From an uncultured Collinsella sp. (GTDB taxonomy: Bacteria; Actinomycetota; Coriobacteriia; Coriobacteriales; Coriobacteriaceae), in the NCBI GenBank assembly GCA_900544135.1, contig UQTU01000001.1, forward strand, positions 47,678-111,677: a stretch of DNA of 64,000 nt, in the 5' to 3' direction. The notes beneath the pieces are model-generated. The model did no database searches. It was not told where the DNA came from and saw only the letters and a program-made list of their open reading frames with translations. Of this stretch, positions 3,660-14,169 are shown piece after piece. Numbering within the stretch: position 1 is the first letter of the stretch; every line of letters begins with the position of its first letter. Position numbers and translations under genes: made by a program.

Positions 3660-4522
3660 AGACTTGATTGCCCGTTAGATCGGCACTGTTCCAAACCATG
3701 GGGGTAGGATGTCTCCCACCGCGGCCTGTGAGGTGAAATCTTGACCGCCGCGGAATCCGCCTACGGGCAACGCTCCATCTCTGGTTGGGGTGAAGCCTAT
3801 GAACTTGTTTCTCGAAATCCGGCGCCTCTCGATGTATGTGACCGGCATTGCCCGGAACCTCTACTCGATCTGGCGGGAATATAAGCAGTAACGGATAGCG
3901 AAGAGAGTCATGGAAAAGGGTCAGTTGCAGCCGACCCTTTAAGACGATAGAACCTGCGTTGCCCGCGCTTCCAAAGTTGACCGACTGAGGAGCGGGTTCC
4001 GCGGCACAACCTGATTTTATCCAGCGAGGCGGCTCTTTTCCAGCCGCTCCGCCGTTTATTTACACCTACCGCCACAAGTGGATTCCGCGCGAACGAGAGC
4101 AAAGAAACAACGCCGGCGCGGCCAACAGAACAGACAATCCATGCGATCAAAGAAATATAAAAGCTCCCGCGGCCTCGGTTCCTCGCCCAGGTCTAGGCAC
4201 TTTTCTTGGCACCATCGCACCACGTCCGCCATCGCCTCCGGCTCGACACTCATTAAAATGCAAGCGGGAAACGATCTCAAGATCACCAACAACAGCTTCA
4301 AGCAAGCGCTTGAGCAACTGTCACAACACGAGCGCCTGTAAATAGGAGCCAGTTTAATAAGTAAGAGAGCCTTGCCACCAATTGTCATTCTGGCGCGGTC
4401 AACCGATAAGTCAAATGGCAACTAACGGGTGTCAGATATACCAATATATGCAAGATTAACTGCTAGAATGCAATGGTGGACAGGCTCACCAACGTCGAAG
4501 AAGCATAAGGTAAGGAGTGCGC

Positions 4523-7612
<3,090 letters not shown>

Positions 7613-7626
7613 GGAGTTAAAACAGC

Positions 7627-9150
7627 ATGGCTAAAAGCAAGGCTAAGGACACCAAGAAGAACACGGCCGACGTTGGCTTTGAGGACCAATTGTGGAACGC
7701 CGCAGACGTGCTGCGCGGCAACCTGGACGCTGCCGAGTACAAAAACGTCGTATTAGGCCTTATTTTCCTGAAGTACCTCTCGGACCGTTTTGACGAACGT
7801 TACCTAGAACTCGTCGCAGAAGGTTACGGCGACGAAGAAGATCGCGACTGTTACATGGAGCAGAATGTCTTCTTCGTTCCCGAAGAGGCACGTTGGGCGA
7901 ATATCGCACAGGCGGCACATACGCCCGAAGTTGGCCAGATCATCGACAATGCCATGCGCGCCATCGAACGCGAGAATGACAAGCTCAAGGACGTGCTGCC
8001 CAAGAACTTCGCTCGTCCCGAACTAGACAAGCGGCGTTTAGGCGACGTCGTCGACTAATTCACAAATGTACAAATGACCGACAACGAGAGCGAGAAAGAC
8101 CTGTTAGGGCGAGCATACGAATATTGCCTGCAGAAATTCGCATCAATGGAAGGCAAAAACGCCGGCGAGTTCTATACGCCGTCGTGCATCGTGCGCACGC
8201 TGGTTGAAATCCTCCAGCCTTTCCACGGTCGCGTGTACGACCCCTGCTGTGGTAGCGGAGGCATGTTCGTGCAGTCCGCCGCCTTCGTCGAGCACCATGG
8301 CGGCAACGTGGTACAGGACATCACCATCTTTGGCCAGGAGAGCAACCCTACCACGTGGAAGCTCGCAAAGATGAACCTCGGTATTCGCGGCATCGAGGCC
8401 GATTTGGGCAACTATGCTGACACCTTCAGCGCCGACCAGCACAAGAATGAAAAGTTTGACTATGTGTTGGCAAACCCACCCTTCAACCTCAAGAACTGGG
8501 GCGGCGAAGCGCTGCAGGAAGACGTACGTTGGAAGTACGGCATGCCGCCCACGGGCAATGCTAACTTCGCTTGGATGCAGCATATGATTTGGCATCTTAA
8601 CGGCACGGGCAAGATTGGCCTCGTATTGGCAAACGGGTCGCTCTCGAGCCAGACGAGCGGCGAGGGCGATATTCGACGCGCTATCTTAGAGGACGATTTG
8701 GTCGAGGGCATTGTAGCCATGCCGGGGCAGCTGTTCTACAGCACCCAAATTCCCGTGTGCCTGTGGATCCTGAACAAGAAGAAGGCTCAGTCCGGCAAGA
8801 CGCTATTCATCGATGCCCGCGAAATGGGCACCATGGTCTCTCGCAAACTACGCGAGTTTACCGAAGAGGACATCAATAAAGTTGCATCCGCATTCGACTC
8901 CTTCCGCAAGGGCGAGTTCGAGCCCGTGAAGGGGTTGAGCGCCATAGCAGATTTGGATGAAATCGCCAAGCAAGATTTCATCCTGACGCCCGGTCGCTAC
9001 GTAGGCATTGCCGAGGTCGAAGACGACGGTGAGCCGTTTGAGGAGAAGATGGCACGCCTAACCAGCGAAATATCAAAGTGCTTTGAAGAGTCCAACCGCC
9101 TGCAGGAGCAGATTAAGAAGAATCTGGAGGCGATTGGATATGAACTTTAG
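7627..9150 (+). pseudogene. hsdM: Type I RM methyltransferase subunit (HsdM) interrupted by an in-frame TAA at 8056-8058
   Basis: ORFs 7627..8058 (HsdM N-terminal domain) and 8074..9150 (N6-adenine methyltransferase domain with the NPPF motif in VLANPPFNLK and the AdoMet motif DPCCGSGGMF) are in the same reading frame. They are separated only by a TAA codon: ...GDVVD*FTNVQMTDNESEKDLLGRAYEY. Confidence 0.8.
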
Positions 9151-9661
9151 CGTTGCGACTCTTGGAGAACTCAGTCTCGGCGACGGAAAATACGGTATCG
9201 CCGCTTCGGCAGTTGATTATGATGCGGAATTACCTGCATATCTTCGTATTACGGATATCAACGACGACGGCACCCTGAATTGGAACGACCGCAAATCTGT
9301 AGACGACCCCGCCGCTTACAAATACATGCTGAGAGATGGCGATATCGTTTTCGCCAGAACGGGCAACAGTACCGGAAGGAATTATTACTACGATTCTCGC
9401 GACGGCGAGTTTGCCTTCGCGGGCTTCTTAATTCGCTTCTCGCTGGACGATAAGAAAGTTAATCCTCGCTATGTCAAATACTATGCCCAGTCGAAAGCTT
9501 ATTGGGACTGGGTGGCCTCTTTTAACACCGGCAGCACCAGAGGCAATATCAATGCTAAAACTTACGCACAGATGCCAATCCCCCCTGCCCGATCGCCCGA
9601 CGCAAGACTCAATCGTTACACTATGCGACTCTATCTCGAATAAAATCCGACTCAACACTAC

Positions 9662-9678
9662 GCTAAATGGCTATTTAG
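9662..9678. repeat. Crossover-site copy A (gctaaatGGCTatttag), inside the hsdS central conserved region where it encodes LNGYL
   Basis: Imperfect palindrome with an asymmetric 4-bp core GGCT. One of four copies (with B, C and D). Confidence 0.6.
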
Positions 9679-10278
9679 AAGAGCTGGCGGACGGCATGTT
9701 CCGACGGCACTTCGGGGGGCTAACAGACAACGCTACTCTGGCCGATTTTGCCAATGTCACAATGGGTCAATCCCCGGCAGGCAGCTCCTATAACGAAACG
9801 GGGATTGGAACCATCTTTTATCAAGGTCGCGCCGAATTTGGCTGGCGTTACCCCACTCAGAGACTAAGCACTACGGAGCCCAAGCGCATGGCAAAAGCGG
9901 GAGATGTCTTGATGAGCGTGCGCGCTCCCGTGGGCGACCTAAACTTGGCGTACGAAGACTGCTGCATTGGACGCGGGCTAGCTGCAATCCACTGCGACTA
10001 TCCATCGTATGGTCTCTACCTAATGCGCTCACTCCATAAGAAACTTGACGCCTATAACGGTGAGGGGACTGTATTTGGCTCGATAAACGGCAAAGCTCTA
10101 AATGGACTCCCCATTGCGTTACCCAACAATGCAGCGATACGCGCGTTTGAAAAAGAAGCCACGCCCATTGATACTCAGATCCGAAACAATGAAGTCGAAT
10201 CGCGGGCGCTTGTCACCCTTCGCGACACATTGCTTCCTAAGCTTATGTCGGGCGAGATTGACGTCTCGAAGGTTGACC

Positions 10279-10848
10279 TCACACAGCTAAATAGCCATTT
10301 AGCTTTGAGTTATTCTTGATTTTCTTTTGGATGGTATCAATCACCTGAACGATTTTTGCTTGCTTCTCAAAAGTGGGCAATGGCATTGACAGCTTGCGAA
10401 AAGTACTCGTTGGACGCCCCAACGCCGGAACGCCAGTTTGCGTTTTATTCGAAAGTAACCGCCATTGCCCCTCTCGAGTATGAAAATAGTAGACAAAAAA
10501 TTTCGGTAGCACCTTGTCATTACAGCGAATGCGAAATTGGCTTTGCGAAATGACGTAGCGAGGATACTTGGAGTCATAGGGGACCATCGCGACTTGGCCC
10601 AACGTTCCACGGTGTGTTATTACGATATCGCCACGCGAGGCCAATGCGTTGCCCAGGGAATTTGCTTTTTCAGGAGTGACATAGCGCAGCGCAGTGTCGT
10701 TCGTCTCAAAGCCAGTTAGATTCGATCCATTAAATACCGGAATACCGGAGTTGACAAAGCAATCAGTCTTAATATTTGAGCCGAAGGGTCCCATGGCAAT
10801 CTCATCAATAAGATCCTCAACGCATACTTCTTCACTTTCGGCAATCAT
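10279..10848 (-). CDS. Half-size HsdS cassette (TRD1b plus central conserved region), translationally coupled to the upstream recombinase
   Basis: TRD-like body ending in a CCR-type helix (MPLPTFEKQAKIVQVIDTIQKKIKNNSKLNGYLAV*). Its ATG (10848-10846) overlaps the recombinase TGA (10847-10845) as ATGA. Confidence 0.6.
   Translation of the reverse strand: MIAESEEVCVEDLIDEIAMGPFGSNIKTDCFVNSGIPVFNGSNLTGFETNDTALRYVTPEKANSLGNALASRGDIVITHRGTLGQVAMVPYDSKYPRYVISQSQFRIRCNDKVLPKFFVYYFHTREGQWRLLSNKTQTGVPALGRPTSTFRKLSMPLPTFEKQAKIVQVIDTIQKKIKNNSKLNGYLAV
10285..10304. repeat. Crossover-site copy B (agctaaatAGCCatttagct), shared by the 3' end of + strand hsdS (encodes TQLNSHLA) and the 3' end of the minus-strand half-hsdS (encodes KLNGYLAV)
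   Basis: Same palindrome as A but with the core inverted (AGCC). The two convergent ORFs overlap through it. Confidence 0.6.
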
Positions 10849-11801
10849 TCCAAATACTTCCTATGCGAAGCCTTTACATTGTTCTGGTTTACCATGGCGT
10901 AATGCATGGTGGTGTCTATTTTCGCATGGCCTAGCAGCTTTTGCACCTGCTCTATGGGCATTCCTTTGTCAATAGCATGGGTAGCAAGCGTACGGCGAAA
11001 CTTATGCGGATGAACGCGATTGACGCCAGCGCTTCTGCCTAGGTCACGCAAGCGGAGCTCTATGTTCCCAACCGTAATACGTCGAGCTGAGGAATCGAGT
11101 GCGACAAAAAGCGCAGGGCTCTTGTCGGCACGGCTCGCAAGATATTCCGTGAGATGCAACTTGGCACGCGCGTCGAAGTAAACAGGGCGCTGTTTATTTC
11201 CCTTTCCCATTACAAGGCATTCGCGCTCATGCAAATTGACGTCCTTCCTGTCGAGTCGTACAAGCTCGCCAATGCGCATGCCGGTCGAAGAGAGAAGATC
11301 AACGATGGCAAGGTCCCGCTTGGATTCGCATGCATCTCGCAAGATCTCCAGCTCCTCGTCACTTAACACCTCTTTGGTTATTTGAGCAGTTTTGACGCGG
11401 CGAATACGCCTTACAGGGCTTTTAACAATATAGTCTTCATCCTCAAGCCACGAAAAGAAGCTCGACATAATGCGACGTATATTATCGATTGTGACTTTAC
11501 TGGAACCGCGAGCCGTCTCGTAATCATTGAGATAGCGCCGCAGGTCATCACTTTCGACCTGCGTATAGGACTTAGCAAGTGCCGCGTTCATATGCCGCAA
11601 AGTTGCCTCATAGTATGCAATAGTTTTAGGTGAGCATCCCTCAACTTCTTTAGCGGTGAGAAATAGCGAGAGCAGGTCTTGCCCTGGCTCTGCCTGTTTT
11701 GGTCCAAGCGTTTGCCTAAGTGTAATGGCTAGATGCTTGAGCTGGTGTGGGTCGAGAAGGCCCTGCATTTCCGAAAGCACGGTATTGATAACGGTTTCCA
11801 C
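10845..11801 (-). CDS. Tyrosine site-specific recombinase (phage-integrase/Xer family) embedded in the hsdS locus
   Basis: C-terminal catalytic-domain motifs (HKFRRTLATHAIDKGMPIEQVQKLLGHAKIDTTMHYAMV, catalytic Tyr in HY) and an N-terminal core-binding-like domain. Start taken at the GTG at 11801, which has SD GAAAGGAG 5 nt upstream. The tracked ORF extends to 11909 through site C. Confidence 0.8.
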   Translation of the reverse strand: METVINTVLSEMQGLLDPHQLKHLAITLRQTLGPKQAEPGQDLLSLFLTAKEVEGCSPKTIAYYEATLRHMNAALAKSYTQVESDDLRRYLNDYETARGSSKVTIDNIRRIMSSFFSWLEDEDYIVKSPVRRIRRVKTAQITKEVLSDEELEILRDACESKRDLAIVDLLSSTGMRIGELVRLDRKDVNLHERECLVMGKGNKQRPVYFDARAKLHLTEYLASRADKSPALFVALDSSARRITVGNIELRLRDLGRSAGVNRVHPHKFRRTLATHAIDKGMPIEQVQKLLGHAKIDTTMHYAMVNQNNVKASHRKYLE

Positions 11802-11860
11802 GCTGCTCCTTTCGTCGAGTACGATAGCCACAGTGTGGACGGCGCGTTGTACATAGTGAA

Positions 11861-11878
11861 GTAAATGGCTATTTAGCT
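11861..11878. repeat. Crossover-site copy C (gtaaatGGCTatttagct), just upstream of the silent TRD2b cassette and within the 5' extension of the recombinase ORF
   Basis: Core GGCT in the same orientation as A. On the minus strand it encodes TAQLNSHLL in the recombinase reading frame. Confidence 0.55.
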
Positions 11879-12628
11879 GTGCAGTGTGAGGCAATTGCTG
11901 AACGCGCAACAGGTGAAAATACCGTCCTGGAGTCGCTGTGCGACTTAGTGACCGAGAAAGCCGATTGCAGCGAAGCGGACTTCGATACCTATGTTTCTAC
12001 CGAGTCCCTCCTCCCTAACAAAATGGGCAGGCAGATAGCGTCGTCCCTACCTCAAACAGGGAAAGTGACGGTTTATCAAGCTGGGGATATTCTGATCTCC
12101 AATATCCGCCCCTATTTCAAGAAAATTTGGTACGCGGACCAAGCTGGAACGTGTTCCGGCGATGTTCTCGTATTTAGGGCAAAGCAACCAGAATGGGCGG
12201 GCTACCTTTATTCTTGCCTGCGCAATGATTCCTTTTTCGACTTCGTCATGAAGGGGGCTAAAGGCACCAAGATGCCGCGAGGCGACAAGAAGCAGATGCT
12301 TACCTACGTAGTCAGCGCCAGCCCAAACCAATTGGTAATCGGTTTCATGGCATCGGCGCTCAAGCACATATCAACCGCAAACAAAGAGAGTGAACATCTT
12401 GCTGCTCTTCGTGACGCCCTTCTCCCCAAGCTCATGTCCGGAGAGGTTGACGTCTCAAAGGTCAATCTCACGCAGCTAAATAGCCATTTAGCTGAGATCC
12501 TACGGCCATTCGGATGCCATATCCCCGCAATACAAAAACGGGGCAGCCCGCACTCCTGCGAACCGCCCCGTACCCCTGGCTATCGCGTCATAAGACCAAC
12601 CAGCACCACTCCCCTACTTCCCAAATAG
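11879..12628 (+). other. Silent hsdS cassette (TRD2b plus C-terminal conserved helix); no own start codon or SD
   Basis: TRD-like body ending LAALRDALLPKLMSGEVDVSKVNLTQLNSHLAEIL..., which parallels the end of the active hsdS (LVTLRDTLLPKLMSGEIDVSKVDLTQLNSHLA). It is preceded by site C (read as NGYLAV) and followed by site D. Confidence 0.55.
12474..12493. repeat. Crossover-site copy D (agctaaatAGCCatttagct), at the C-terminal helix of the TRD2b cassette
   Basis: Identical 20-mer to copy B; core AGCC. Confidence 0.55.
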
Positions 12629-13951
12629 CGCACCCAGCAGACCGCGGCGTTTGGGCTTTTCCTCTCGGTAGCAACCCTCGGCTGCTGCTGCCACCTGCCG
12701 CGGCTGCTCGCCACCTCCGCGGCGTACGATCTGGTATAGGAACGGCGACTTAACGTATTTGACCTCGATGGGCGTGGCGTGCACGGTGCTCTCGCCGGAC
12801 AGATGAAGGCTCAGGTTGAGCGGCGCCACGATATGCGTCTCGCGCTTGTCGCTAAACACCACCGCGGCCGCGCGGCCCGTCTGGCCGTTCACGGCGATGC
12901 GCACCTGCTCGCCGTCGCGGCTGTCCGTTGCCGGACGGTCGACAAAGTAAACCGGCACCATCACCAGACCGTCCTTATGCTTGCGAGCCTTGCGCGCCCA
13001 GGTGCGGATGCTCTTTTTATTGAGCCCCAGTACAACCTCGGCGTCGTTGCCCGCAACGTCGAGCGCCAGCTTATCAATGACCACCTGGTCCTTGGCAGAC
13101 GCATCGACGGAGACGACGCGAAAGTCACCTTCCTGCATGGCAGGGTCAAACGGCCCAACCTTGGCATAGTCCCACGGCTCCAAAATGCCCATGAGACGAA
13201 CGTCCAGGTAGTTTGCCCTGGGGTATGCCCAGTCGAGCACCTCGTAGTACACCAGGGTCTCCTTGCTCAGGCCCTTGCCCGGGAAGCTCGCCATCATACG
13301 CAGGTCCGCCAGCGCCATGGGGAAATAGAAGAGCATCATGTCGTTTTGGATCGCGTCTTCCACGTCGTGCCCGGCAAAGGCATCCGGGTACTGGCGCACC
13401 AGCTGCAGCGCGTTGGCACGTGCCTGCTGCGGCGAGATTTCGCAGGGAATACCCTGCTCCGGCACATACTCCGCACCCACACCCATGGTCAGACGTTTGC
13501 TAAACGTACCGGGCTTGAGCAGGTCGGCAATGCCGATCTTGTTGCCGCAGGACGGGCACTCAAACACACGCTGCGTTGACTCGCCCTCAAAGGACGCTCC
13601 GCAGAAGGGGCAAGGAATGCTCACATACGTGGCCTCTTGGAACTCCTGCGCCGTGCCGCGATCCTCCCACAGCAGATGTTCCAGGACCGACTGATTGCGC
13701 CAGTGCGAATTGAAGAAATACCAGTCCGGGTCCTCCGGGCGCTCGAGTTGCGACACATGCGTGAGCTTGAGCAGTCCATCCACCACCGTCAACGGCGTAT
13801 GGCGAATGCCCAAAGCGCTCTTGGGCTCTCCGGCGTCCGCCTGCCACGGAATGACCGCGCCGCAATAGGCGCACTCAAAGCTGCGCTTAGCCTGGTGCGA
13901 GTACATAGGGCCGCCGCAGTTTTGACATTTAATGGCAAACATCTCGTCCAT
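12614..13951 (-). CDS. Hypothetical protein with two zinc-ribbon motifs
   Basis: CQNCGG...CAYCG and CPFCG...CPSCG pairs. Start taken at the ATG at 13951, which has SD AAGGAGG 7 nt upstream. No other recognisable domain. Confidence 0.5.
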   Translation of the reverse strand: MDEMFAIKCQNCGGPMYSHQAKRSFECAYCGAVIPWQADAGEPKSALGIRHTPLTVVDGLLKLTHVSQLERPEDPDWYFFNSHWRNQSVLEHLLWEDRGTAQEFQEATYVSIPCPFCGASFEGESTQRVFECPSCGNKIGIADLLKPGTFSKRLTMGVGAEYVPEQGIPCEISPQQARANALQLVRQYPDAFAGHDVEDAIQNDMMLFYFPMALADLRMMASFPGKGLSKETLVYYEVLDWAYPRANYLDVRLMGILEPWDYAKVGPFDPAMQEGDFRVVSVDASAKDQVVIDKLALDVAGNDAEVVLGLNKKSIRTWARKARKHKDGLVMVPVYFVDRPATDSRDGEQVRIAVNGQTGRAAAVVFSDKRETHIVAPLNLSLHLSGESTVHATPIEVKYVKSPFLYQIVRRGGGEQPRQVAAAAEGCYREEKPKRRGLLGALFGK

Positions 13952-14169
13952 GGAAACGTCCTCCTTTGCACAGGGGCTATCGACGTTAAGTATGTCGAGC
14001 AAACAGGCACATGCCCATACCCATGTGGCCCAAAATGGACCACCCAGGCAGACGAGAAGGCTCGCTCGTTAGCACCGGCAGACCATTACTGCATTTTCTG
14101 AGCATCGGTGCACAGCGCCTCCGCGCGAGCTACACTATCCCCTTAAACATGATTGTGAGGACGACCGCT

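Follow-up and report, generated by a model that had tools for sequence, protein, structure and literature searches.

In the Type I restriction-modification system EcoKI, whether DNA is methylated or restricted is controlled by a domain of about 150 amino acids at the N-terminus of HsdM, and neither activity is possible without HsdM (PMC12707154). In the DNA-bound structure of the PacII M1M2S complex, the N-terminal and catalytic domains jointly form the interface between the two M subunits, and point mutations of the N-terminal domain at this interface reduce or abolish methylation (PMC9613975). Disrupted hsdM alleles restricted to single lineages have precedents, among them those of Salmonella Enteritidis lineage E1 (PMC7046640), and premature stops have been reported in the pneumococcal cassettes (PMC7557576). 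A literature search on Collinsella methylomes returned nothing specific. PacII M1M2S is the closest characterised structural relative of the Collinsella HsdM described here (PDB 7vru, E 2.5e-72), and a further match is to 3khk (E 5.6e-125). The resemblance to both includes the N-terminal domain, the catalytic domain and the C-terminal tail, but PacII and 3khk are uninterrupted single chains whereas the Collinsella gene is cut between its N-terminal and catalytic domains.

The window analysed is a 64,000-nucleotide stretch of DNA from an uncultured Collinsella sp. (assembly GCA_900544135.1, contig UQTU01000001.1, positions 47,678 to 111,677), and the gene order of its Type I locus is the usual one, with hsdR upstream of hsdM and hsdS overlapping the hsdM stop. 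The hsdR gene (4523..7612, + strand) is an open frame with Pfam matches to HSDR_N, SWI2_SNF2, ResIII, T1R_D3-like and T1RH-like_C; the mechanically called ORF begins at GTG 4517 and the ATG at 4523 is preceded by AAGGAG, such that the product is 1029–1031 amino acids long, with 1029 in the gene calls of related contigs. The hsdM gene (7627..9150, + strand) spans 507 codons on read-through with a single TAA at codon 144 (8056..8058), in frame with the ATG at 7627, and its translation around the stop reads ...RRLGDVVD*FTNVQMTDNESEKDLLGRAYEY.... The two ORFs listed for it, 7627..8058 (143 amino acids) and 8074..9150 (358 amino acids), share one frame, and the joined product is of normal length, intact homologues having 503–507 residues. 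In a tblastn alignment to the window, the intact orthologue P0001, of 507 residues, is matched over residues 1–507 in a single segment that crosses the stop, with 99.4% identity, and this is thus one interrupted gene and not two chance ORFs.

The position of the stop relative to the domains of HsdM is precise. The 5′ part (codons 1–143, 7627..8055, + strand) encodes the N-terminal domain, with Pfam HsdM_N (PF12161) matching residues 19–143 (E 4.5e-31), and the 3′ part (codons 145–507, 8059..9150, + strand) encodes the catalytic domain and C-terminal tail, with N6_Mtase (PF02384) beginning 12 residues past the stop (E 1.5e-104). The 3′ part retains both DPCCGSGG, corresponding to the AdoMet motif xPxxGxGG, and the catalytic NPPF, each invariant across the homologues, and together these domains and motifs identify the product as a HsdM of the gamma-class N6-adenine methyltransferases. 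The preliminary description of this DNA had noted an in-frame TAA between the N-terminal and methyltransferase domains of an otherwise normal-length hsdM, and each element of that account is borne out. An intact HsdM has one uninterrupted frame of about 500 codons, and in the window this frame is broken at codon 144; because intact orthologues are 503–507 residues long, the gene is best regarded as an hsdM pseudogene or null allele.

We searched protein collections with the joined hsdM product as query, and the top orthologue is P0001 (99% identity), which heads a cluster of 2280 member sequences at 90% identity; the cluster includes WP_373572711.1, named as a Collinsella aerofaciens Type I M subunit. 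The comparison of orthologues at the stop had been proposed earlier as a check: residue 144 is leucine in 12 of 12 aligned homologues (83–99% identity), and the same alignment shows no variation at the neighbouring D143 and F145 (13 sequences for F145). At the DNA level, the intact hsdM of a related contig, L010, is 99.8% identical and has TTA at codon 144; only three bases differ between it and the window, one of which is 8057 (TTA vs TAA). Genome and metagenome collections were also scanned with a pattern that leaves codon 144 free, GTCGTCGACNNNTNCACAAATGT, and all ten of the Collinsella loci recovered read TTA TTC, the one further match being an unrelated chance match in Prolixibacter. The lesion is thus a single T>A transversion at 8057 in an ancestral TTA codon, and of the six residues offered as possible ancestors in the preliminary description, leucine is retained and tyrosine, glutamine, lysine, glutamate and serine are dismissed by the homologues and related loci.

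Other assemblies carrying the same stop were found by exact look-up of both truncated products lying side by side, followed by inspection of the DNA, and GACTAA is present in all carrier contigs checked (L001–L005 and L007–L009). These derive from the NCBI genome GCA_008680765.1 (contig NAKP01000006.1; L001/L007), and from ERZ504728 (L003/L008), ERZ504665 (L004), ERZ504696 (L002), DRR042423 (L005) and DRR042421 (L009); several accessions of the ERZ and DRR series could come from the same runs or project, and the independent hosts comprise at least one NCBI genome, one metagenome series and the window. The carrier contigs differ from the window by only 0–2 substitutions over about 8 kb, and thus represent one clonal lineage of the Collinsella aerofaciens group that inherited the stop. 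A sequencing or assembly error, with TTA as the true codon, was one of the origins proposed earlier, and the stop does differ from the common allele by a single base. Errors are also present in this family of data, as L002 and L005 are full of 1-bp homopolymer deletions. However, these two contigs have no substitutions relative to the window, and position 8057 is a transversion outside any homopolymer on which the NCBI genome, several independently assembled metagenome contigs and the window all agree. Error is thus practically excluded, and we regard it as extremely improbable. The other two proposed origins were real inactivation and a population polymorphism; the stop itself is real, recurring in independent assemblies, and it is a polymorphism at the level of lineages, most Collinsella alleles having TTA (leucine).

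Two groups of contigs invited other readings. First, fragmented hsdR and hsdM genes in L002 and L005 might have been taken as further decay, but the homopolymer deletions responsible also break the flanking genes, and the fragmentation is an artefact. Secondly, L006, L032 and L033 were candidates for additional stop carriers and were rejected, since the contigs end inside the codon and carry an intact TT- allele. We note that all three are short contigs that carry the T allele and end exactly on the polymorphic base of codon 144 or 160; searching by exact product thus also picks up truncations at contig ends that look like stop alleles, a pitfall when carriers are counted.

Within the TAA lineage only three sites vary over 8 kb, and a ratio of nonsynonymous to synonymous change past the stop is consequently not meaningful. 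One of the three is position 8060, at which six sister contigs (L001, L003, L004 and L007–L009) have T>A, changing TTC to TAC (F145Y). This site is 3 nt from the nonsense base, a proximity with a chance of about 0.2% when calculated post hoc, and could reflect clustered mutation or relaxed constraint. Between position 8060, position 8686 and a C run in hsdS (see below), all four pairwise allele combinations are present within the lineage, indicating recombination or recurrent change inside the locus.

We have considered whether full-length HsdM could be restored by readthrough or suppression of the stop. Nothing specific favours this beyond the low-level readthrough that is possible in principle for any stop. 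The base following the hsdM TAA is T, and in E. coli UAAU terminates translation efficiently. TAA, TAG and TGA each terminate long ORFs in the window, consistent with the standard genetic code, and ARAGORN finds no tRNA gene, and thus no suppressor tRNA, in the window; an alternative code and a window-encoded suppressor were both rejected on these grounds. Programmed recoding or a coupled restart would be expected to show a conserved stop, but the stop is conserved in no orthologue, with leucine and TTA outside the one lineage. The invariant F145 immediately past the stop is itself mutated in the sister genomes, which argues that codon 145 is either untranslated or no longer important. Readthrough is thus very unlikely.

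Another reading is that of a functional split gene, in which translation terminates at the TAA and restarts at the ATG at 8074 (M150), with the two fragments reassembling or the second serving as a methylase lacking its N-terminal domain; such a locus could be r− m+. Several features make this worth weighing. HsdM_N and N6_Mtase are separated precisely at the stop, an in-frame ATG follows six codons (16 nt) further on, and all clean members of the lineage keep the 358-codon frame beyond the stop open, beside an intact hsdR. Some EcoKI mutants of the N-terminal domain lose restriction and keep methylation (PMC12707154). The open frame and intact hsdR are expected of a recent lesion, and they are equally compatible with a split gene. 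However, the signals for a restart are missing. Anti-Shine-Dalgarno pairing energies at the true starts of hsdR, hsdM and hsdS are −7.7, −7.4 and −9.3 kcal/mol respectively, and no Shine-Dalgarno pairing is seen at either in-frame ATG past the stop, with +0.9 kcal/mol at 8074 (M150), where the longest ORF within the 3′ part opens, and +0.2 kcal/mol at 8146 (M174). Restart at either position was rejected on this basis, and the ribosome-binding signal that recoding or restart would use is absent from ATG 8074. Only one lineage, a very young one, has the split, hsdM being fused in all deeper relatives, and because hsdS is frameshifted in the window a restarted methylase would have no specificity subunit. 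Methylation by PacII also depends on contacts made by the N-terminal domain (PMC9613975).

Other hsdM nonsense alleles in Collinsella bear on the same question. The fragment clusters around the two hsdM products of the window hold further truncated versions, and at least five further independent nonsense positions were found in other Collinsella lineages: R136* (CGA>TGA; L022–L025), L160* (TTA>TAA; L030 and L031), Y166* (TAT>TAG in L026, L027 and L029, and TAT>TAA in L028), Q271* (L034–L036) and K276* (L037–L039), the last two by tblastn only. The alleles verified in the DNA are clean single in-frame nonsense changes in diverged backgrounds (93–99% DNA identity to L010), and each further allele is present in more than one sample and adjoins a complete 1029-amino-acid hsdR. 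From protein P0136 alone we infer a K170* allele as well. R136*, L160* and Y166* are, like the stop at codon 144, located just ahead of an in-frame methionine, which would suit a split gene, and the crowding of alleles at the domain boundary might be taken as a sign of function. This argument is weakened in three ways. First, in Q271* and K276* the break falls within the catalytic domain itself, just upstream of NPPF, so that no active enzyme is possible, and clean nonsense alleles therefore need no special function to account for them. Secondly, the fragment clusters preferentially gather products of 130–250 amino acids, and retrieval thus favours the boundary region. Thirdly, codons 141–175 contain the highest count in the gene of single-step paths to a stop (20 of 181, a 1.6-fold local excess). 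The boundary crowding is largely attributable to this retrieval bias together with the local supply of codons, and we consider a split gene improbable.

A broader proposal is that loss of hsdM is recurrent and positively selected in gut Collinsella as a means of shutting off a shufflon-containing Type I system, and that the boundary alleles (R136*, L144*, L160* and Y166*) might also leave a methylase lacking the N-terminal domain, restarted at M150 or M174. In its support, the independent nonsense positions found across lineages number at least six, and the hsdR next to each of them is intact; if correct, the shortened methylase would leave an epigenetic switch free of restriction in place of a restriction system. 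The data do not favour adaptive recurrent knock-out, and we view the proposal as speculative and unlikely to hold. The codon 144 stop is best read as an ordinary loss-of-function allele, and the locus as an example of ordinary restriction-modification decay.

A second lesion is present in hsdS. The gene in the expression site (9140..10319, + strand) starts within the end of hsdM and, from three-frame translation against L001, L002 and L010, contains a +1 frameshift at a run of six C residues (9580..9585, + strand), the in-frame alleles in related contigs having five; removal of one C restores a 393-amino-acid HsdS, in agreement with the frameshift reported earlier. The C6 allele is present in the window, L003, L004, L008 and L009, and C5 in L001, L007 and L010. 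The run is too short to be called a contingency tract. We note that both C5 and C6 occur inside the TAA lineage, and that their combinations with the alleles at 8060 require either recurrent change or recombination.

The locus also contains a shufflon, with silent cassettes and a recombinase gene downstream of hsdS. It is built around a near-palindromic site of 15–16 nt, TAAATrGCyATTTAG, present in four copies and coding in both directions, for LNGYL in one orientation and for LNSHL in the other. The first copy (9664..9681, with the core TAAATGGCTATTTAG) supplies the LNGYL that closes the first conserved region of HsdS; it is a member of repeat family D2 and of the inverted pairs I1 and I6, and is the inversion breakpoint relative to L003. 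The second (TAAATAGCCATTTAG, 10288..10305, from repeats and translation) gives HsdS its C-terminal LNSHL, the third is at 11862..11879 (repeats D2, I2 and I5), and the fourth at 12477..12494 is the outer breakpoint relative to L003, as seen from repeats and alignment. Between them are a silent hsdS half-cassette with one target-recognition domain ending in LNGYL (10279..10848, − strand; Pfam Methylase_S, E 3.7e-10), a tyrosine recombinase gene located inside the invertible segment (10845..11909, − strand; Pfam Phage_integrase, E 1.4e-35, and Phage_int_SAM_4), and a second silent hsdS cassette (11879..12493, + strand; direct repeat D1), the translation of which ends in LLPKLMSGEVDVSKVNLTQLNSHLA and the C-terminal conserved region of which is 79% identical to 10209–10304. 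Both hsdR and the recombinase are open reading frames with full domain sets, as had been claimed. In L003 and L008 the whole 2.8-kb segment 9662..12492, containing the recombinase and two hsdS cassettes, is inverted with 99.96% identity to the window. The adjacent recombinase, the extra cassettes with inverted repeats and the alternative arrangements in near-identical genomes together identify a phase-variable hsdS shufflon. Both arrangements carry the TAA, and the recombinase has thus acted after hsdM was lost.

One contig departs from this organisation: L002 (ERZ504696) is without about 10305..12406, such that the recombinase and one cassette are gone and a fixed hsdS of 432 amino acids is called. 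The missing stretch apparently corresponds to a deletion from one 96-nt direct repeat (10209–10304) to the other (12398–12493), in a contig that is rich in homopolymer errors.

The presence of a shufflon raises the question of whether codon 144 might itself be a reversible ON/OFF switch, given the equipment for phase variation elsewhere in the locus, namely the hsdS shufflon, the recombinase and the C5/C6 run. However, position 8057 lies in GACTAATTC and not in a simple or inverted repeat, nor does it coincide with a recombination site, and a point transversion has no mechanism for fast reversal. Moreover, TAA is found in every sampled member of the lineage. A switch at this codon is scarcely credible.

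We therefore favour, with a probability of roughly 0.85, a genuine and heritable hsdM nonsense allele that arose recently in one clonal lineage and renders the locus null for both activities (r− m−). In this lineage of the Collinsella aerofaciens group, a T>A change at 8057 converted the TTA (leucine) at codon 144 of the hsdM of a shufflon-type Type I system to TAA, which all of the sampled members carry and which is restricted to this lineage. Translation would end after the 143-residue N-terminal domain, and the catalytic domain would be either unmade or made in trace amounts without its N-terminal domain, such that the M2S methyltransferase core could not assemble. As the HsdR proteins of Type I systems are expected to be active only when bound to this core, the locus would lose modification and restriction together, and the loss should be harmless to the cell. 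The +1 frameshift in the C6 run of hsdS is a second and later lesion, consistent with relaxed selection, and inversion of the segment within the lineage after the stop arose indicates that the recombinase still works. The preliminary description regarded the locus as genetically OFF, and this is supported as a prediction of lost methylation and restriction by the lack of restart and readthrough signals in hsdM, the hsdS lesion, and the published need of the N-terminal domain for methylation (PMC9613975, PMC12707154).

The restriction-modification island (window 4000–12000) has a G+C content of 49–55% compared to about 57–69% in the rest of the window (60–66% over most of it), and its upstream neighbours differ between Collinsella lineages; both features are consistent with a mobile defence cassette and horizontal acquisition. 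The many TTA and CTA leucine codons of hsdM are likewise consistent with horizontal acquisition. Beside the shufflon is an ORF of 462 amino acids (12614–14002, − strand), conserved at this position in related contigs, that has weak matches to zinc-ribbon and Cas12f1-like TNB domains (E about 1e-6 or weaker). For annotation purposes, hsdM should be labelled as a pseudogene or null allele and not as two genes. The strain is predicted to be without both its Type I methylation motif and the restriction barrier that goes with it, and may be easier to transform. More generally, the locus provides one more example of the known pattern in which restriction-modification systems are quickly gained and lost and Type I systems are safely lost through hsdM, and it illustrates a shufflon recombinase that still inverts DNA after loss of the enzyme that it served.

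Comparison with the described systems emphasizes both what is familiar at this locus and what is particular to it. Type I systems typically have the order hsdR-hsdM-hsdS and an hsdS that begins within the end of hsdM, as here. As in the r− m− hsdM null mutants of the EcoKI family, loss of HsdM is expected to remove modification and restriction alike; those are laboratory mutants, however, whereas this is a natural allele of a gut member of the Coriobacteriia with a predicted phenotype. A natural parallel is Salmonella Enteritidis lineage E1, in which, as here, hsdM is disrupted in one lineage and intact in its sisters, and several independent disruptive variants are present in the population, as they are across the Collinsella lineages; the Salmonella lesions are mostly frameshifts at a T run near codon 60, in contrast to the point nonsense changes at scattered codons in Collinsella (PMC7046640). 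The shufflon resembles the SpnD39III/ivr system of S. pneumoniae in having one expressed hsdS, silent cassettes, inverted repeats in conserved regions and an adjacent tyrosine recombinase (PMC7557576), and, as in systems of this type, alternative arrangements are found among near-identical strains. It differs from them in that inversion of the segment takes the recombinase gene with it, the recombination site is dual-coding (LNGYL/LNSHL), and the methyltransferase that it serves is predicted to be dead.
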